Source: a virus
Lineage: Duplodnaviria; Caudoviricetes
Direction: 5' to 3' (one strand)
IMG/VR virus record: IMGVR_UViG_3300042691_038938
Length of the DNA: 64,000 bases
Each line of letters starts with the position of its first letter. Position 1 is the stretch's first letter. Below the pieces are notes generated by a model. That model had not been told where the DNA came from and made no database searches. It worked only from the letters and a program-made list of their open reading frames with translations. Shown here one piece after another: positions 2,381 to 12,512 of this stretch. The translations under genes were made by a program, and so were the position numbers.

Positions 2381-4912
2381 ATGGCATCAAAGAAAGTTTA
2401 TTCAGATCTATATGCAGACGGCGAGATAACTGGAAAGAAGATCACAGTTGATGGAGAGTATTCCTTGCCTCTAACTGACGGATTAGCTGGCCAGCTCATT
2501 TCGACTGATGGAGTGGGAAACCTTTCATTCGTTAACATCTCATCTCTAGGTTTGCTTAATCCTTCTAGCATAGTAAACGGCACAGGATTAACGTGGACTC
2601 AGATCTCTCCGGGAATATTACGAGGCGACGTTAGTCTTTCTCCATTTAGCACGACTAACCTAGTTGAGGGAAGTCGTCTCTACTTTACTAACGAAAGAGT
2701 TGACGACCGAGTCAATGCTCTACTTCTTGCTGGGACTGGAATTACTAAGTCATACAATGATGGAGCAGACTCCCTGACTCTAGGAGTCACGCTAGTACCA
2801 TTTAGCACTACTGATCTTGTAGAAGGGTCTAGGCTCTATTTCACGAACGAGAGAGTGGACGATAGAGTTGCAGCATTAATTCAAAACTCAGCGTCTGTTA
2901 CCTGGACCTATAACGATTCCCTAAACACCCTAACTGCAGAGGCGGTGACCTCGCCTCTACAGATTGAAAAGGACGGAGTCTTAGTGGCAGCTAGAGGAAA
3001 GGTCGACTTTATAACTGGATCGAACTCAACACTTACTGTGCTAGACGACGTGATAAACAGTAAAGTAACGGTACAAATTGACTCAAACGTTGGAGCGCTA
3101 GATGACTTATCTGATGTCACTATCCTTTCTCCAAATCCAGGAGAAGTACTAGCATATGTTGGTCCAGACTGGCAAAATGTACCAAATCCAGCAGTCATTC
3201 AAGTGGGCGCAGGAACAGGGTCCAGTATTAGAATCAATAATCTTAATACTGCAAGCGGACCTTATTCAACTGTGAGTGGCGGATACTTAAATACTGCATC
3301 TGCATACTATTCGACAGTCGGCGGAGGGTTAGGTAACACAGCAAGCGGCTATCAATCAGCAGTTGCTGGAGGAAACTCAAACATTTCTAACGGAAACGAA
3401 AGCTTTGTCGGAGGAGGATTATGTAATACCGCAAGCTCAGATTGCTCAACAGTAAGTGGAGGTCAGTCAAACTCGGCAACTGCCTGTTGGTCAGCGGTCA
3501 GTGGAGGATGCGGCAATACTTCATCTGGATATGGATCATTCATCGGCAGTGGCTGTTGTAATACTAGCTCAGGAAATTACTCAGTAATCAGCGGAGGAAG
3601 AATCAACACTTCAAGTTCATACGGTTCAGCCGTCGGTGGAGGATACTTAAATACGGCATTGGGTGCACAGTCAACGATTAGTGGAGGATATTGTAACACA
3701 GCGTCTGGAGCGTTTTCAGTAGTCGATGGAGGCTGTTGTAACACAGCATCAGATTGCTTTTCAACAGTCGGTGGAGGAAGATATAATACTTCATCTGGAT
3801 GCTATTCAGTTATCACCGGAGGAACTTGCAATCTATCTAGTGGATTTTTCTCAGCGTTGGCTGGAGGATTCTGCAATACTTCATCCTGTAGTGGATCATT
3901 CATTGGTGCAGGATATTGTAATACTAGTTCAGGAAATTACTCAGTAATTGGTGGAGGTTACATAAACCTATCTTCAGGAACAGATTCAGTGATCGGCGGA
4001 GGATTTAGAAATATTTCATCATGTAATAGATCAACGATTAGTGGAGGTTATTGCAACATAGCAAATGCAGATTGTTCAACAATAGGTGGAGGAAAAGTTA
4101 ACACAGTGACCGGCCTGAATTCAGCAATACTTGGTGGTAGAAATAACACAGCATCAAATACTGATTCAACAGTAGGTGGAGGATTCATGAACGTTGCTAG
4201 CGGATACGGCTCAGCTGTTCTTGGAGGATATTGTAACACAATGTCAAACTTTAACTCTGGTGCATTTGGCTGTAACATTACCTCAGTATGTGATAATACC
4301 TTTCATGCTAATTACTTGAACCTATACAACACACCAGAGTCAGCGACTTCAAACACCGCATCGCTAGTAAGAGACACTGTGACTGGCCAAGTAAAAGTTA
4401 GATATCAGGGAGGGATCTTTGCACAGACCACTTCAAGCACGCCGATAACTGGAACGATTACTGAAACCTCGGTGATCTCAACTGGTGTTGGGACTCTTAC
4501 TGTACCTGCGAATGGCTTCGCGGTCGGCGACAGCTTTGGAGTTTCAGTCGGGGGAGTGATCTCGTCGGCAAATGGTGAGACTGTTAGAATTAGAATAAAA
4601 TCAGGCTCAGTATTACTTGCAGACACCGGCACAGTATCTCTACCCGCACTATCCGGTAGATTTTGGTCCCTACAAGTACAGTTTACAATAAGAGCCATTG
4701 GAGCAGCAGGAGTTGCTTCCATCGCGGCAAACGGAATGTTTTCATTCTCTTCTTCTGGATTCGACATACTTGGCGCTGACTTGGGAGGAGTTGAAAACAC
4801 TCTCTTTGATACTACTGCCTCAAACACGCTAACGGTTACTGCCCAATGGGGATCGACGAACGCGACGAATAACATCTATTCTAACATATTTGTCGTAAAC
4901 AAGAACTATTAA
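2381..4912 (+). CDS. Tail fibre/adhesin-like protein with 22 x 15-aa NxxSGxxSxxxGGxx repeats
   Basis: 843 aa. Duplicated PFSTT(N/D)LVEGSRLYFTNERVDDRV module, a central beta-solenoid-type repeat and a beta-rich C-terminal domain. Confidence 0.7.
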   Translation: MASKKVYSDLYADGEITGKKITVDGEYSLPLTDGLAGQLISTDGVGNLSFVNISSLGLLNPSSIVNGTGLTWTQISPGILRGDVSLSPFSTTNLVEGSRLYFTNERVDDRVNALLLAGTGITKSYNDGADSLTLGVTLVPFSTTDLVEGSRLYFTNERVDDRVAALIQNSASVTWTYNDSLNTLTAEAVTSPLQIEKDGVLVAARGKVDFITGSNSTLTVLDDVINSKVTVQIDSNVGALDDLSDVTILSPNPGEVLAYVGPDWQNVPNPAVIQVGAGTGSSIRINNLNTASGPYSTVSGGYLNTASAYYSTVGGGLGNTASGYQSAVAGGNSNISNGNESFVGGGLCNTASSDCSTVSGGQSNSATACWSAVSGGCGNTSSGYGSFIGSGCCNTSSGNYSVISGGRINTSSSYGSAVGGGYLNTALGAQSTISGGYCNTASGAFSVVDGGCCNTASDCFSTVGGGRYNTSSGCYSVITGGTCNLSSGFFSALAGGFCNTSSCSGSFIGAGYCNTSSGNYSVIGGGYINLSSGTDSVIGGGFRNISSCNRSTISGGYCNIANADCSTIGGGKVNTVTGLNSAILGGRNNTASNTDSTVGGGFMNVASGYGSAVLGGYCNTMSNFNSGAFGCNITSVCDNTFHANYLNLYNTPESATSNTASLVRDTVTGQVKVRYQGGIFAQTTSSTPITGTITETSVISTGVGTLTVPANGFAVGDSFGVSVGGVISSANGETVRIRIKSGSVLLADTGTVSLPALSGRFWSLQVQFTIRAIGAAGVASIAANGMFSFSSSGFDILGADLGGVENTLFDTTASNTLTVTAQWGSTNATNNIYSNIFVVNKNY
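2642..2870 (+). repeat. Two diverged copies of a fibre module, 156 nt apart
   Basis: PFSTTNLVEGSRLYFTNERVDDRV at 2642 and PFSTTDLVEGSRLYFTNERVDDRV at 2798. The protein is nearly identical while synonymous sites differ. Confidence 0.85.
3245..4234 (+). repeat. Coding tandem repeat, 22 units of 45 nt
   Basis: Counted by hand from NTASGPYSTVSGGYL to NVASGYGSAVLGGYC. Confidence 0.9.
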
Positions 4913-4928
4913 AAAGAATATAACTTAG

Positions 4929-6716
4929 ATGAGCAAGAAGATTTTAAGCATTTCTCAACACAAGACAGTATGTAGTACACCAGCTACTCCGGATGCAGGC
5001 TACAGTAAGATCTACGTAAAATCAAATGGTTGTTGGTATCGACTTGACGACTCAGGTAACGAGTATCCGTTAGGCGGAGGAGGAGGAGTAATCGATGTGG
5101 GGAGCGGACCAAACTCAAGCCTTAGGATAAATAATTGTAATACTGCGAGTTCCAATTATTCGACTGCATTAGGCAGATGTAATAACTCATGTAGTCAATA
5201 CTCTACGATCAGTGGAGGTTGTAATAATACTGCAGGCTACACATCAACTGTTGGTGGAGGTCGAGGGAATAACGGATTCGGATTAGGTTCGACTATTTCA
5301 GGTGGGTGCAATAACGTAAGTGATGGTGCTTCAACATATCCAACTATTGGCGGAGGCTGCGCTAACTCAGTGAATGGAGCCGCATCAGTTGTTGGTGGAG
5401 GATGTTTAAACTCTGCATGCGGTTCAGCGTCAGTGATAAGTGGAGGATCCAATAATACGTCTAGTGGATATGTATCAACGTTGGGAGGAGGATTGTGCAA
5501 CGTTTCATCCTGCACTTATTCAACAATTGGCGGAGGTTACTGTAATCAAGCAACATCGCCATTATCAGTCATCGGCGGCGGAGGCAAAAATTACGTTTCC
5601 GGCTGTGGATCAACGATCAGTGGAGGTTACTTCAATAGCTCAAATAACAGCTTCGTAGCAATAGGAGGAGGACGATGTAACACTGCATCTGGATATTTTT
5701 CTATAATTAGCGGAGGCGCATCAAACTTCGCATGTTCAATATCGTCACTGGTAAGTAGCGGAAATTTAAACTCAGTCACTGCAATTTACTCCACTGTTAT
5801 AAATGGCAGTAATAACTCAGCTTCAGGAAATTTCGCACTCGTTGGAGGAGGTAGTAATAATACAGCAAGCGGCAGCTATTCGATAGTCGGAAACGGTTCA
5901 ATCAATATAGCAAGCGGAAATCACTCAGTTATTGTAGGAGGTTTTTGTAACAATGCAACTAGCGGTTTCGCAACAGTAAGCGGAGGTCGACGAAACACGG
6001 CATCCAGTGACTATTCAGTGGTTAGTGGAGGTTGTTGTAATACTGCTTCAGGTTATTCAGCGACTGTGAGCGGGGGTAGAAGAAACGCAACAGCCGCTGT
6101 TTGCTCAACAATAAGTGGAGGATATCTTAATAATATCTCGGCAGTAGGTTCGTATTCAGCAATAGGCGGTGGATATAACAACTGCATCACTTCTTCATGT
6201 AACGTAATTGCTGGAGGGCACTCGAACGTTTCTTCTGGAGCAAGATCAGTCGTTGGGGGAGGGACGGTAAATACTGCTAGTGCCAACACTGCGACTGTTA
6301 GTGGGGGGAGACAAAACACTGCAAGTGGATCTGATTCAACAGTCGGCGGAGGGTTAGGAAACTCATCGACTCAACCGTACGCAGCAATTAGCGGAGGATA
6401 CTGTAATGTTGCGAGTGGAGCTAGTTCAACCATTAGCGGAGGATACCGTAATACTGCGTCAGGCGCATCTGCAGGCATAGTCAGCGGCCAGTACAACTCA
6501 GCACAATGCGTGTCGACGCTTGTTGGAGGCCAATGCAATACTGCATGTCATGATTATGCTATCGTGCTTGGATGTGGACTCACATCAAACAGAGCGGCAG
6601 CAACATTCGTGAACCAGCTCTCCATCGTGAACCTACCAAGCTCTAGTGCAGGACTTCCATCCGGTGCATTATGGTATGATTCAGCAGACAGCTGCACAGT
6701 TAAATTCGTTCCATAG
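4929..6716 (+). CDS. Paralogous 15-aa-repeat fibre/adhesin-like protein, Cys-rich
   Basis: 595 aa. Shares the VIDVGSGxxSSLRINN lead-in and the repeat consensus with 2381..4912. Ends LSIVNLPSSSAGLPSGALWYD. Confidence 0.7.
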   Translation: MSKKILSISQHKTVCSTPATPDAGYSKIYVKSNGCWYRLDDSGNEYPLGGGGGVIDVGSGPNSSLRINNCNTASSNYSTALGRCNNSCSQYSTISGGCNNTAGYTSTVGGGRGNNGFGLGSTISGGCNNVSDGASTYPTIGGGCANSVNGAASVVGGGCLNSACGSASVISGGSNNTSSGYVSTLGGGLCNVSSCTYSTIGGGYCNQATSPLSVIGGGGKNYVSGCGSTISGGYFNSSNNSFVAIGGGRCNTASGYFSIISGGASNFACSISSLVSSGNLNSVTAIYSTVINGSNNSASGNFALVGGGSNNTASGSYSIVGNGSINIASGNHSVIVGGFCNNATSGFATVSGGRRNTASSDYSVVSGGCCNTASGYSATVSGGRRNATAAVCSTISGGYLNNISAVGSYSAIGGGYNNCITSSCNVIAGGHSNVSSGARSVVGGGTVNTASANTATVSGGRQNTASGSDSTVGGGLGNSSTQPYAAISGGYCNVASGASSTISGGYRNTASGASAGIVSGQYNSAQCVSTLVGGQCNTACHDYAIVLGCGLTSNRAAATFVNQLSIVNLPSSSAGLPSGALWYDSADSCTVKFVP

Positions 6717-6742
6717 ATAAATAATAAAAAAGATTTTAATAG

Positions 6743-8101
6743 ATGTACGGATCGGGAATACAGATACCTAGGATTGCTTTTTCAACAGTAGACTACGCAC
6801 AGATTCCAGCAAACAGCTTTTTCTTTGGTTTTGACTTGGATAATGCTGGTGCCCTTTCAAAAATGGACAACACAGGAGCAGTCACTGTGATCGAAGGAGC
6901 AGGTGGCGGAGGAGTAGTTGATACTGGTTCAGGCACCTATTCAACTTATAGGATATGCACAAGTAATAATGCGTCTGGCCCATACTCAACAGCCTTCGGC
7001 TATGCTAATAGTGCTAGTGGGTATGGAGCGACTGTCTCGGGAGGATATAATAATACTGTAAGCTCTGATCTCTCTACGGTTTCCGGAGGATATGGAAACA
7101 CCTCAAGCGGGTACTATTCAGTGGTCGGTGGAGGTGCATACAACACGGCGCTATCTGACTATTCAACATCTAGTGGAGGTTATGGAAACTCAGCAGCCAA
7201 TCTCGCAGCGACTGTCTCTGGTGGATACGGTAATTCAGCGACCGGTGCAGGAGCGACAATTTCCGGCGGAGTCGCTAACACGACAAGCGGATACTATTCA
7301 GTAATCGGCGGAGGAGCGTTTAACTCAATACAGTGTCAGTATTCAGTGATCGGCGGAGGATTCAATAACACTGCGTCTGGTTACAACGGTGCAACAATTG
7401 GTGGTGGAATAAACAACACTGCGTCTGGGTATAATCCATCAACTGTTGGAGGAGGATTCAGCAATACTGCGAGCGGAGGCTATTCAACGGTCAGCGGAGG
7501 TTATTTCAATACTTCTTCCGCTTATTACTCAACAGTCAGTGGAGGTTACGGTAATGTTGCGAGCGGAAGCTATTCAACAGTCAGTGGAGGATATGATAAT
7601 GCAGCGTGTGCCCAGTGTTCAACAGTGAGCGGCGGAGCGAATAACATAGTCCGAGGTTGCGGGTCAGCAGTAGTCGGAGGAGTTGACAATACATTAGGGT
7701 CTTGTGCAAGTTGTTCAATCATTGGTGGAGGTTGTTTCAATACGGTGACTAAAGAATTGTCATTCGTTGGTGGAGGGTTATGCAACTGTTCTTGTAGTAC
7801 AACTTCAGTGATCAGCGGAGGAGCTTTTAATACAACGTGTGGAGACTATTCAACAGTCAGTGGAGGATACGGAAACTTCGCTGACTCATTATATGGAGCA
7901 ATTCTTGGAGGACAGTGTAATAATACTTGCAGCTTTGCCTGTGCAACAATAGTCGGCTCAAATATTTGCGCAGTAGCCAACTGTACTCTGCATGCAAACT
8001 GTCTCTGGTTAAAGGATCTTCCTGACGATTCCGCTTTACCGTTACCTGCAGGAACAGTTTACTCGTGCACGGCTGAGGGAGGAAGGCTTTACATAGCATA
8101 A
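6743..8101 (+). CDS. Third paralogous 15-aa-repeat fibre/adhesin-like protein
   Basis: 452 aa. VVDTGSGTYSTYRI lead-in and the same repeat. C-terminal LKDLPDDSALPLPAGTVY resembles the end of 4929..6716. ATAAATAA at 6717-6724. Confidence 0.7.
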   Translation: MYGSGIQIPRIAFSTVDYAQIPANSFFFGFDLDNAGALSKMDNTGAVTVIEGAGGGGVVDTGSGTYSTYRICTSNNASGPYSTAFGYANSASGYGATVSGGYNNTVSSDLSTVSGGYGNTSSGYYSVVGGGAYNTALSDYSTSSGGYGNSAANLAATVSGGYGNSATGAGATISGGVANTTSGYYSVIGGGAFNSIQCQYSVIGGGFNNTASGYNGATIGGGINNTASGYNPSTVGGGFSNTASGGYSTVSGGYFNTSSAYYSTVSGGYGNVASGSYSTVSGGYDNAACAQCSTVSGGANNIVRGCGSAVVGGVDNTLGSCASCSIIGGGCFNTVTKELSFVGGGLCNCSCSTTSVISGGAFNTTCGDYSTVSGGYGNFADSLYGAILGGQCNNTCSFACATIVGSNICAVANCTLHANCLWLKDLPDDSALPLPAGTVYSCTAEGGRLYIA

Positions 8102-8597: not shown

Positions 8598-8909
8598 ATG
8601 TTTAATACTATTCACATTTTCGGATACGGTGAGACTCAAATCATCGGAAGTGAGCTTAACTTAAAAATAAGTTCCTCTACTCTAACTACACTAACTCCTT
8701 TTGTAGATCACATAAAGAGCCTACGTCCTAGCGATGTGCTTGAATCAGACTATCACGTGATTCACGTATTCAATGAAGCAAAGGTAATGTACTTGTCTCA
8801 GTCAGAATCGCAAGAAGAAAAGAGAACCTTTACTATTGACTTTGACCAGATCGACACGAGTATCTTGGAAAGCCTGATTCAGGAACTGTACTCTGCTACC
8901 ATCAGTTAA
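8598..8909 (+). CDS. Hypothetical protein, possible fibre assembly chaperone
   Basis: 103-aa ORF ending the fibre cluster. The function is a positional guess only. Confidence 0.55.
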   Translation: MFNTIHIFGYGETQIIGSELNLKISSSTLTTLTPFVDHIKSLRPSDVLESDYHVIHVFNEAKVMYLSQSESQEEKRTFTIDFDQIDTSILESLIQELYSATIS

Positions 8910-9721
8910 TAATACTTAAACTCATCGTAGAACCACTTGTAATTGGTCTTGATCCAGTTACAGACGTTTACTCCAAGCACATCCTTGTAATCGGGCTTGA
9001 GTGGCGAGATCTTTGTGCGAATCTTATGGTCGCCATAGATACCGTATACTGAGTCGTCTTCAGCGGTTATCTGTTCAACGTTATCAAAGTCATGAGAGAA
9101 TTCAGGAACTCCCAAGTACTGATAGATCCTTTTCATTTCCCTTTGGGGATTTTCAGTCAGGTCTTCGTACTTGACAAAAAGCATCTTCTTGTCGATTCCC
9201 TCCTTGAATATCTGATAGAGCCTCTCTATCGCAAGACCTACTGGCTGGCCCTGTGCCCATACGTCAATCCTCTTCTCAGTGGTTGTACCAGTCATCTTTG
9301 AGTGATCGACTATTCCAGAATCCATGTGCTGGTTCTTGCGAAAGTTCTTCTCCATTGAGGCAAAGATTCCGCGAAGGTCCCTGACCATGCAGACGATCTT
9401 GGGGTCTGGATAGAACTCATTAAGAAATCCATAGTGGATTCCCCAACCTCTACTCTTATCCATGACATACGGTCGGTCGGTGATCGCGTTGAAGAATCCA
9501 TGTACCCCGTCGTGACAGAATCGAGTAAATCCTGCTCTCATCAGGGATGAGTCCTGTGCCTTAAACTCAGGAGAATTAGTGTAATTGTTTCTGGCCGCAT
9601 ACACTAACTCCAGGACTCCCGAAGTGGGCGTGACATAGAAGTCAGGATTCTGGCCCAGGACGTTTTGTAAGAGAGTTGATCCTGCTCTTGGCAGGGACGA
9701 TTGAAAGAATATCTGTTTCAT
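8906..9721 (-). CDS. PAPS-dependent sulfotransferase (Sulfotransfer_3-like)
   Basis: N-terminal 5'-PSB loop SSLPRAGSTLL, 3'-PB motif VRDLRGIFAS and the typical VKYEDL(T)ENP...IYQYLG segment. Confidence 0.85.
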   Translation of the reverse strand: MKQIFFQSSLPRAGSTLLQNVLGQNPDFYVTPTSGVLELVYAARNNYTNSPEFKAQDSSLMRAGFTRFCHDGVHGFFNAITDRPYVMDKSRGWGIHYGFLNEFYPDPKIVCMVRDLRGIFASMEKNFRKNQHMDSGIVDHSKMTGTTTEKRIDVWAQGQPVGLAIERLYQIFKEGIDKKMLFVKYEDLTENPQREMKRIYQYLGVPEFSHDFDNVEQITAEDDSVYGIYGDHKIRTKISPLKPDYKDVLGVNVCNWIKTNYKWFYDEFKYY

Positions 9722-10353
9722 ATTATGTTTGATGAGTAACTTTTGTTTTGTATTACTTGATTGAAAGGCTGGATTATCCTGATCCTGTACTTGCCTATGT
9801 TAGTATGATTGTAACTCATGTGCTGTATCACCTTTGCGTAGAAATTGTCTATTTCCATTCCTGAATGAGCTCCCATCTCTAAGATATCGTCGTATAAGTT
9901 TGCAGTCACTCCATACGCATGAGCACAGACTATCTGATTCCTAAAGAAGGGTTCAATCAACCCACCGAAATAGAGCATGTCCCAATCATTAAGGATCTCC
10001 TGGTTTATTGTGAGTAATTCACTAGGGTCGATCAGGAATTCAACGTCGTCTTCAAGTATTAAGACTCGCTGATATCCTTGATTCTTAGCATACTGAATAG
10101 CATTGAGATGAGATTGTCTACAACCTAGCTGGCCCTTGATGTACTTTTCATCGTCCTTTATGAAATTACGATAACTTATCGGTTGAGGTAGAGATATCAA
10201 GTCACTTCCTGCGATCCTTTGAAAGTTCGTGATTCCAAACTTTTCAAACTGCTTGAGCATGCCATGATCACGAGAAACGTCCTTATCCATGTTGATATAG
10301 AGTATCTTGTCAAAGTACTCATTAATGTTTACTGGACGATAGGTAAAATCCAT
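9718..10353 (-). CDS. Glycosyltransferase family 25-like
   Basis: YINMDKDVSR, GQLGCRQSHL, LILEDDV and AHAYGV motifs. Confidence 0.8.
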   Translation of the reverse strand: MDFTYRPVNINEYFDKILYINMDKDVSRDHGMLKQFEKFGITNFQRIAGSDLISLPQPISYRNFIKDDEKYIKGQLGCRQSHLNAIQYAKNQGYQRVLILEDDVEFLIDPSELLTINQEILNDWDMLYFGGLIEPFFRNQIVCAHAYGVTANLYDDILEMGAHSGMEIDNFYAKVIQHMSYNHTNIGKYRIRIIQPFNQVIQNKSYSSNII

Positions 10354-11237
10354 TAGGTTAAGGCAATTGAGTTTAATACGTCTGATTCATCAAACACGTT
10401 CAAGTCAAGTAGAGGACACTCATGTAAGGTTCCATGGAAGTTGTAATCAAACAGATAACTGTCTGGTAGCTTAACTGTGTCAGGTAGTGTTGCTGTTATA
10501 TTGTTATGTAAAGACCAACCAAAGGTCTTAGGACTCGTTCCAACCCAAAGAACAGTAGAAGGTGCTCCCAAAGCCGCAGCTGCATGCTGAAGGCACGAAT
10601 CTATCAAGACTCTCTTTGATGAAAAGAGAAGCATTGAAAGAAATTCCATGTTAGACATAGGTTCAATGACTGCCTCAGCTCCTTCGATCGCTTGTTCAGG
10701 AAGACGACACACCTGTAAGATGTGATAGTCATTTGAAAAAGTCCTAACTATTTTCTCTGCTATGTCATGCGGCATGTCTCTAGTCCAGGAATAGGGATAA
10801 GGCTGATCCTTGAGAGGGCCGCCGTTTGTTTGAAGCACCATGATGGGTTTAGTTCTGGACCATTTTCTAAATCCATACTGTCTCTGTCTAACATTGAAGA
10901 GAAGCTCAGGAGTCTCTCCAGAATAGTCTAACTGATATAACTTACACCAATTCTCGACTAGCGGAAGTTCCTGGTGTATGTGTTCATTCGTAAAGTATGG
11001 CTCATGTTTGAATATCATGGTATCCTTGCCCTTAACATAGTCTTGATAAAAGTATGGAGTCATTCCAATTCGATAGACTCTGTCCACGAATGGAAGGTTT
11101 AAGAAGACTTCTGGATACGCACATACTACGATGAGCTCCCTATCCGGATGATTATTTTTGATGCACTTTGCAACAGCTGTTGCTGCGATGTGTTTGCCGA
11201 GTCCACCTTCTAGGTGAAAGATTGAGTATTTTTCCAT
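10353..11237 (-). CDS. GT-B glycosyltransferase, GT9 (heptosyltransferase)-like
   Basis: N-terminal GGLGKHIAAT...HPDRELIVVCAYPEVF and C-terminal IDSCLQHAAAALGAPSTVLWVGTSP. Confidence 0.75.
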   Translation of the reverse strand: MEKYSIFHLEGGLGKHIAATAVAKCIKNNHPDRELIVVCAYPEVFLNLPFVDRVYRIGMTPYFYQDYVKGKDTMIFKHEPYFTNEHIHQELPLVENWCKLYQLDYSGETPELLFNVRQRQYGFRKWSRTKPIMVLQTNGGPLKDQPYPYSWTRDMPHDIAEKIVRTFSNDYHILQVCRLPEQAIEGAEAVIEPMSNMEFLSMLLFSSKRVLIDSCLQHAAAALGAPSTVLWVGTSPKTFGWSLHNNITATLPDTVKLPDSYLFDYNFHGTLHECPLLDLNVFDESDVLNSIALT

Positions 11238-11239
11238 TT

Positions 11240-11644
11240 TTATTTCTTGCTTTTTAGTAGTTTTTCAAGTATTTCATGTCCCTTTGGATCCACTAGATCG
11301 TGCCATCCAGTCTCACCTGCGTGTATCTGTCGACGAATCTCTGTTGCTGAGATGTTCGCGATCTGCGAGTCTACTTGGATCTCCTTTACCTCATATCCGA
11401 CACCTCTTCCGTAATTTACGCTAGCAATATCAGGTATGATGATGATTTTTACTAATGGGTCTCCTTTATAGATTTCCAGCCAAATCTCAGATACTTCTGC
11501 TGCAGAGAGAGGATTTTTATCGTCTGGCTCAACATCTCGAATAGCAATTAAGATGGGCTTGCCCTTGCCTAAGTATTCGTTAAAGATGGTCATGTGACCC
11601 TTGTGAGGAGACTGATATCTCCCAATAAACATGTTATACGTCAT
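11240..11644 (-). CDS. HIGH-superfamily nucleotidyltransferase (NMNAT/cytidylyltransferase-like)
   Basis: FIGRYQSPHKGH and ISATEIR motifs. The likely start is MTYNMF at 11644, in an ATGA overlap with the upstream stop. Confidence 0.8.
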   Translation of the reverse strand: MTYNMFIGRYQSPHKGHMTIFNEYLGKGKPILIAIRDVEPDDKNPLSAAEVSEIWLEIYKGDPLVKIIIIPDIASVNYGRGVGYEVKEIQVDSQIANISATEIRRQIHAGETGWHDLVDPKGHEILEKLLKSKK

Positions 11645-12084
11645 TTTTTCTTTATTTTTTCTAGTCCAAATGGTATCTTGTACCAAATCCTTTCGTGTAT
11701 GTAGTATGTAAATATCTTGATAAAGAAATCAGCTGTCCCTATCGAAAAACCTATCGTGATGCTCCCGGTAAGAAATGCGGCGATTAACGAAGTTATCGTA
11801 GAGGAATAGAAACGGTAAGTTATTGATTTTAAGATGTGTCTAAGTTTAGAGACTCTATTCTTTTCTCGAACCAGAACTATCTTGTTTTTGTCCCAGTGAA
11901 TGGAATCAACCTCACACGTGATGTGATACTTCTTTCCGACTCCCTCGACTTCATCCTGAGTGGTGTACGCCGCTCCATGAATCTCAAGATCGCTAGCTAG
12001 GTGTTCAACACCGTTTATGATGACTCGCCAAAAGAGGCCTGAATCACCAGCATCATGATTATATCGTATCTTGACTAGATGCAT
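11641..12084 (-). CDS. Two-domain protein with a C-terminal DUF2061-like membrane domain
   Basis: C-terminal RHILKSITYR...TADFFIKIFTYYIHERIW matches the DUF2061 pattern as I recall it. The N-terminal ~70 aa are soluble. Confidence 0.7.
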   Translation of the reverse strand: MHLVKIRYNHDAGDSGLFWRVIINGVEHLASDLEIHGAAYTTQDEVEGVGKKYHITCEVDSIHWDKNKIVLVREKNRVSKLRHILKSITYRFYSSTITSLIAAFLTGSITIGFSIGTADFFIKIFTYYIHERIWYKIPFGLEKIKKK

Positions 12085-12512
12085 CCTCTCAATATTAGGT
12101 GAGCCTTAATGATTCGTAGGCAGTCTAACTCGCTTGCCTTAGTATCAATTGGAAGGTAATCATTCACAGGTTCTTCATAATCGCTGACGAAAAAGTTTTC
12201 TCTTCCTCTAATGTCGCTCGTTTGTAAGAATATCTCAACTGTTTCTGCAGATTCCTTTAGCTCTTCTCTAAGATCTAGATAAGGGCTAACTAGTGCAAGA
12301 ATAGGAGTAAACCCCTTAGCGTCCAAGAATCTAGCGATATTGTAAGCATTAGTAAGGTTTCGACGACGTCCCTCTTGGCTATAATCCTTATTTTTGAATA
12401 TTTCTCGCATCTCATCTCCATCGATTATCATGGGATTAGGAACGATTTTTGCGATCTCTGCCGCAAGGGTAGACTTTCCAGCACCAGGCTGACCTATAAA
12501 ATGAATTATCAT
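12075..12512 (-). CDS. cysC: Adenylyl-sulfate (APS) kinase
   Basis: GQPGAGKST Walker A, IDGDEMR, DYSQEGRRRN, ALVSPY and DYEEP motifs. Confidence 0.85.
   Translation of the reverse strand: MIIHFIGQPGAGKSTLAAEIAKIVPNPMIIDGDEMREIFKNKDYSQEGRRRNLTNAYNIARFLDAKGFTPILALVSPYLDLREELKESAETVEIFLQTSDIRGRENFFVSDYEEPVNDYLPIDTKASELDCLRIIKAHLILRGCI

Follow-up and report, generated by a model that had tools for sequence, protein, structure and literature searches.

To our knowledge, textbooks list two ATP sulfurylases, Sat and CysDN. Enzymes of the Sat/MET3 type (PF01747; e.g., 1v47 from T. thermophilus and 1j70 from yeast) measure roughly 390-580 aa, have a PUA-like N-terminal domain and a catalytic domain of about 200 aa, and belong to a HIGH-type superfamily marked by an HxxH motif. 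Some of them are joined to APS kinase, in both orders, as Sat-CysC fusions or PAPS synthases (2gks, 1x6v). CysD, with its unrelated PP-loop fold, is powered by the GTPase CysN. Metabolic models derived from genomes consider sulfate assimilation or sulfation as absent or incomplete when Sat and CysDN are lacking.

Other small adenylyltransferases have to be considered here, in particular the NMN adenylyltransferases (NMNATs) of the archaeal/NadM type (MJ0541, 1f9a; the M. thermautotrophicus enzyme, 1ej2; NadM, 2qjo) and PPAT (CoaD). The latter, an HxGH adenylyltransferase of ~160 aa, makes an ADP-linked compound that is then 3'-phosphorylated by the P-loop kinase CoaE.

The nucleotidyltransferase described below (hereafter NT) is encoded by a lake phage. 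It could be a miniature ATP sulfurylase of a third kind, through which the phage would be able to make PAPS, a reading to which we give a probability of about 0.7, the reaction itself being inferred. Both this reaction and the superfamily are known; what would be novel is the enzyme lineage, which is new and far smaller. No published description of the NT family or of a third ATP sulfurylase was found in the literature.

A six-gene operon in a T4-like phage

The window, i.e., the whole analysed stretch of 64,000 nucleotides, comes from a T4-like phage and carries a run of six genes, flanked by baseplate or neck genes on one side and by fibre genes rich in repeats on the other; they are given here in their order of transcription:

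12075-12512, minus strand: trimmed APS kinase of 145 aa (Pfam APS_kinase, E 1e-11)
11641-12084, minus strand: DUF2061 membrane protein with an extra N-terminal domain of ~80 aa (Pfam DUF2061, E 9e-14)
11240-11644, minus strand: NT, a 134-aa HxGH/ISxTxxR nucleotidyltransferase, candidate miniature ATP sulfurylase (ORF, motifs and all family-invariant residues)
10353-11237, minus strand: 294-aa GT-B protein with a GT9 (heptosyltransferase-like) fold (AlphaFold and Foldseek)
9718-10353, minus strand: GT25 glycosyltransferase (Pfam Glyco_transf_25, E 2e-9; PHROG 2835)
8906-9721, minus strand: PAPS-dependent sulfotransferase (Pfam Sulfotransfer_3, E 7e-22; Sulfotransfer_1, E 2e-13)

An earlier, sequence-only reading had pointed to a protein of ~134 aa with GRYQSPHKGH and ISATEIR, located two genes downstream of cysC. 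Both points were borne out: the motifs lie at residues 8-17 and 98-104 of the protein encoded by the third ORF listed, which starts with an ATG overlapping the DUF2061 stop codon (ATGA); the DUF2061 gene in turn overlaps the APS-kinase-like gene by 10 nt. The genes downstream of NT are separated by 0-2 nt or overlap. An alternative start, TTG at 11686, would lead to a protein of 148 aa; the homologues begin at or near the ATG. Tblastn searches with one Sat and one CysD protein gave only E values > 1, in agreement with the absence of both from the window noted by the same reading.

The 134-aa NT is a real, strongly conserved gene and not a chance ORF, given its 1491 homologues, the 893 representatives of 50%-identity clusters and an AlphaFold model with a mean pLDDT of 96.8. 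The best 120 of the 1491 homologues are 65-100% identical to the window protein. By megablast, 12 kb of the window found no match among GenBank phages.

The APS kinase keeps the P-loop, DGD..R, YS..R..N and SPY motifs and aligns to the solved APS kinases 8a8h and 7yq0; the NCBIfam adenylyl-sulfate kinase models match it below their cut-offs. Regarding DUF2061, the same domain is fused to APS kinase in Chitinophagaceae and to NT in another family member (P0127), which makes it part of the core set for sulfate activation. What it does there is not known; it could serve as a membrane anchor or in the entry of sulfate. In the window DUF2061 protein, the extra N-terminal domain is soluble and precedes the membrane part.

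The 294-aa protein has no Pfam match. The "GT9-like" label that it had received from its sequence holds at the fold level: the best Foldseek matches of its AlphaFold model (pLDDT 81) are 3tov, WaaF (1psw), WaaC and TibC (E 4e-10 to 1e-5), so that a protein heptosyltransferase, TibC, figures among them besides LPS heptosyltransferases. Its gene lies beside three Ser/Thr/Asn-rich repeat fibre genes (2381-8101, plus strand). As the protein resembles TibC-type enzymes and adjoins these genes, glycosylation and sulfation may be directed at the fibres themselves.

Relationship of NT to known nucleotidyltransferases

The family profile, built from an alignment of 36 sequences, displays the motifs FIGRxQPxHxGH, NPxT, PDIxSVNYGRxVGY and ISATxIR and a W, all of which are present in the window protein. 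The latter also has every family-invariant residue (R9, H14, H17, S99, T101 and R104, plus G79, G83, Y84 and W114), and substitutions at the catalytic H..H and S.T..R positions are rare or lacking throughout the family. The ATP-binding motifs of NadM and archaeal NMNATs, GRFQPxHxGH and SxTxxR, are found in the window NT, and the HxxH of Sat-type ATP sulfurylases is matched as H14-K-G-H17. No recognisable counterpart of the Sat motifs QxRN and GRD exists in NT, a single 134-aa domain in which the PUA-like N-terminal domain and the ~200-aa catalytic domain are absent. A Pfam scan of NT detected CTP_transf_like only (E 1e-4, just over the cut-off) and no match to PF01747, the Sat catalytic domain; with a Sat protein as query, tblastn found nothing in the window. 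The NCBIfam NMNAT/NadM models TIGR01527 and NF002243 yield 26.9 bits against a cut-off of 181.2 and 33.2 bits against 127, with matches confined to the N-terminal ~50 residues, and no NCBIfam match was obtained with families of the HldE domain II, TagD or HldC type.

With the family profile, the nearest solved proteins are archaeal NMNATs (1f9a, E 2e-15). The alignment to 1f9a consists of two blocks (NT 7-75 to 5-76 and NT 83-130 to 109-154), about 25 residues being missing in NT and chain residues 77-108 having almost no counterpart. At the position of this missing segment, which we take to hold the NMN-contacting residues of 1f9a (about 77-108), NT carries the conserved, family-specific stretch PDIxSVNYGRxVGY. 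That this loop forms a small, cationic acceptor site is inferred and has not been shown.

The fold gives a similar ranking. In a VIA search, NT matches 1f9a best (Z 14.2, rmsd 2.8, 131 aligned, 29% identity), followed by PPAT (13.0), NadM (12.5) and NaMNATs (about 11). The ATP sulfurylases range from Z 10.3 (1v47; rmsd 2.9, 125 aligned) down to 7.0, and small cytidylyltransferases and HldC, at Z 5.8-7.1, stand below NMNAT, PPAT and ATP sulfurylase. These sulfurylases appeared only in this wider search, none being among the top 50 PDB matches of NT with Foldseek. From the sequence profile and the fold rankings, NT is a trimmed offshoot of the NMNAT branch of HIGH nucleotidyltransferases and not a member of the Sat family. 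The fact that its nearest solved relatives are NMNAT and PPAT, and not ATP sulfurylase, counts against the sulfurylase reading, as does the lack of recognisable QxRN and GRD motifs.

NT shares GRxQPxHxGH, NPFT, SxTxIR and a C-terminal W..V helix with archaeal/NadM NMNATs, its closest relatives by sequence and fold, but it is ~25 residues shorter mid-protein, scores far under their family cut-offs and has partners of sulfate activation, not of NAD metabolism, in genomes that have NadD. With Sat/MET3-type enzymes, it has in common the superfamily fold (Z 10.3 to 7.0), HxxH, the proposed reaction and the fusion to APS kinase in both orders, whereas it differs by its size (134 aa), the lack of the PUA-like N-domain and its descent from the NMNAT branch instead of the Sat branch. 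Unlike CysD, it has no GTPase partner. PPAT, its second-best fold match (Z 13.0), differs by its acceptor, phosphopantetheine, and by its gene context.

Linkage to APS kinase and distribution in bacteria

A search for fusions between NT and APS kinase, proposed at the outset as a check, was strongly positive. Among the best 150 of the 893 cluster representatives, 52 are fused to APS kinase, either as kinase-NT (38) or as NT-kinase (14). Several of these fusions include full canonical APS_kinase domains (E 7e-60 for P0203, 9e-42 for P0249, 3e-40 for P0156). Furthermore, one PHROG profile (10255) spans both the kinase and the NT of the window. That both orders exist implies that two consecutive steps were joined several times independently, as seen in PAPS synthases.

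Adjacency or fusion to APS kinase is a trait of the family, which in the window takes the form of a coupled operon; the layout of this kinase-NT operon is also found in three other loci (L004, L098 and L002). The complete six-gene cassette recurs in phage contigs of 199 kb and 253 kb. Other phages have DUF2061 - APS kinase - NT - Sulfotransfer_2 - GT2, and a small phage contig has an NT::APS kinase fusion followed by a sulfotransferase. Cassettes are also found in bacteria: APS kinase::DUF2061 - NT - sulfotransferase on Chitinophagaceae chromosomes, a kinase-NT fusion with a sulfotransferase in Pyrinomonadaceae, and, in marine Flavobacteriales, a canonical CysC (E 5e-72) followed by NT, an unknown gene, a CysQ-like phosphatase, a flippase and two sulfotransferases. 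In the cassettes examined, kinase and NT are the constant core, around which sulfotransferase families, CysQ and glycosyltransferases vary. In Dadabacteria, the NT gene lies among unrelated housekeeping genes, which speaks against the sulfurylase reading.

Three other arrangements were observed. An Asp/Asn-hydroxylase-like gene accompanies APS kinase (with or without DUF2061), NT and a sulfotransferase of ~325 aa in L038 (4562-7368), L058 (5365-8658) and L002 (6531-9383); this cassette recurs in Chitinophagaceae and Pyrinomonadaceae (Acidobacteriota) and may be a hydroxylation-plus-sulfation system of unknown substrate. In the Sano-like phages of Xylella, Stenotrophomonas and Xanthomonas, a fusion of the APS-kinase-like::NT type directly follows a NADAR gene and a gene for a 192-aa protein (e.g., Xylella phage Bacata, LR743524.1; L001 3555-5318). 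No Sulfotransfer_3 was found in phage Bacata, where the neighbouring 192-aa protein has only a sub-threshold match to Sulfotransfer_4, and this context fits neither sulfation nor NAD metabolism clearly. Lastly, three metagenomic proteins of ~375 aa (P0121, P0130 and P0186) join to the NT domain an N-terminal part of ~240 aa that resembles HNH-endonuclease-like proteins of phages. Some phages may have a homing endonuclease inserted upstream of the gene, or wrongly merged with it, and this N-terminal part is uninformative for NT function.

A scan of species genomes with a narrower family alignment found NT relatives in 371 species. Fifty NT-bearing genomes, many of them single chromosomes, were tested for the genes of sulfate activation; most NT genomes are MAGs of unstated completeness. 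Canonical APS kinase is present in all 50, Sat in four and CysD in three. NT thus coexists with Sat or CysD in 7 of the 50 genomes and the exclusivity is not absolute. A CysH-type reductase is encoded by 39 of them, including all the Dadabacteria-type genomes, and a sulfite-reductase-family gene was found in 5/5 chromosome-level NT genomes examined. NadD exceeds its curated cut-off in 49/50, which argues against a housekeeping NMNAT role for NT.

The pattern is clearest in the phylum of the Dadabacteria-type genomes (G003-G141; 120 genomes), where 78 genomes have NT, 18 Sat, 15 CysD and nine none of them, and where no genome holds two. NT and CysDN would occupy the same pathway position and are mutually exclusive within this phylum. 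Fisher's test gives 1e-21; it is uncorrected for phylogeny and, the clades being related, overstates independence. Such exclusivity is what is expected if the enzyme of the first sulfate-activation step was replaced by a non-orthologous one. It should be kept in mind that most of this evidence was drawn from a clade whose NT shares only ~44% identity with that of the window, and that the clades are not independent samples. The CysD genomes of this phylum are all about 1 Mb in size.

The window NT itself, ~44% identical to the Dadabacteria copies, is 64-69% identical to chromosomal copies from Chitinophagaceae and Ferruginibacter, and it groups with those of Chitinophagaceae in a supported clade (98/97). 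The four genomes of this clade that were tested (G002, G035, G046 and G047) all have APS kinase and neither Sat nor CysD. Since no CysH-type gene was found in G035, G046 and G047, the kinase and NT pair can serve only sulfation there.

Possible acceptors and role of NT

According to the mechanism that we propose, NT would have evolved from a NadM-type NMN adenylyltransferase. Its conserved GR..H.GH and IS.T.IR would still bind ATP, while the NMN-binding middle segment would have been replaced by the short PDIxSVNYGRxVGY loop. The pocket inferred there would let sulfate attack the alpha-phosphate of ATP, producing APS and PPi. The APS kinase, encoded by the coupled gene two positions upstream, would turn APS into PAPS; as the formation of APS from sulfate and ATP is very unfavourable, this would explain why NT is always paired with APS kinase. 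PAPS would then feed the sulfotransferase encoded at the end of the operon, its likely consumer. The sulfated target, also inferred, would probably be a glycan that the GT9-fold and GT25 enzymes assemble.

The proposal of a minimal ATP sulfurylase, already put forward by the sequence-only reading, is supported by comparative genomics only, i.e., by the fusions and by the exclusivity with Sat and CysD in genomes that keep CysC, CysH and sulfite reductase. The tie with an APS-kinase-type enzyme indicates only that the product is a 5'-adenylylated compound, and the phage kinase is trimmed and weakly scored. NT could therefore adenylylate another small acceptor (another oxyanion, or a phospho- or amido-compound), the kinase-like partner converting the product into a PAPS analogue by 3'-phosphorylation. 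Cj1416/Cj1415 of Campylobacter or CoaD/CoaE would presumably be parallels for such a pair. This is unlikely, as many partners of NT are fully canonical CysC, sulfotransferases, CysQ and CysH are recurring companions, and the exclusivity with Sat and CysD points to APS itself; from sequence alone, an adenylylated, 3'-phosphorylated product other than APS nevertheless cannot be excluded. The partnership with an APS kinase, and not with a ribosylnicotinamide kinase, also weakens the idea that NT is a true NMN/NaMN adenylyltransferase forming with the P-loop kinase a NadR-like NAD salvage pair for the phage. This idea agrees with the best sequence and fold matches (archaeal NMNAT and NadM), with the JGI annotation of NT as NMNAT and with the NADAR gene adjoining the fusion in Sano-like phages. 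It is nonetheless very unlikely considering the scores far below all NMNAT cut-offs, the missing counterpart of 1f9a chain residues 77-108, the NadD already present in 49 of the 50 host genomes and the absence of NAD genes from all cassettes examined, NADAR beside the Sano-like fusion aside.

The glycosyltransferases of the window raise another question. Known GT9 members use ADP-heptose, and the GT9 fold of the adjoining 294-aa protein leaves open that NT makes an ADP- or CDP-sugar, in the manner of HldE domain II or TagD, as a donor for this protein and GT25; the small size of NT is also reminiscent of minimal cytidylyltransferases (Z 6-7). Such an activation of sugars, which the sequence-only reading had kept as its alternative, is disfavoured and can be given very little weight because NT is found with APS kinase everywhere, but with the GT9-fold gene in this phage lineage only. 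None of the examined cassettes from bacteria or from other phages contains the GT9-fold gene; glycosyltransferases are lacking there or differ. In addition, the fold scores of cytidylyltransferases and HldC are well below those of NMNAT and ATP sulfurylase. Lastly, domain fusions alone are no proof of catalysis, and the APS-kinase-like domain of fungal ATP sulfurylase is regulatory. NT might by analogy be a non-catalytic or regulatory nucleotide-binding partner of the APS kinase, with APS coming from elsewhere. The near invariance of the H..H and S.T..R residues and the genomes that have NT without any other known source of APS make this highly improbable.

The ATP sulfurylase reading has a wider form, which we regard as fairly probable. 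A third, separate class of ATP sulfurylase of ~130 aa, derived from NMNAT, would carry out sulfate activation in numerous bacteria devoid of Sat and CysDN (Dadabacteria, marine Flavobacteriales and Chitinophagaceae), and phages would have acquired it along with a trimmed APS kinase, the two forming a portable PAPS synthase to power their own sulfotransferases. If true, this would close pathway holes in whole lineages, for instance in the 120-genome phylum, where 78 members encode CysC, CysH and sulfite reductase without any recognised enzyme for the first step. It would also offer a very small enzyme for the enzymatic regeneration of PAPS and clearly illustrate how an NAD enzyme can be turned to an inorganic substrate through the loss of a loop. 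For the phage, if its host is devoid of Sat and CysDN like the Chitinophagaceae that carry the closest bacterial relatives of its NT, both steps would have to be brought in for the sulfotransferase to work, which would be why it carries NT as well as cysC. Phage sulfotransferase cassettes would thereby become self-sufficient.
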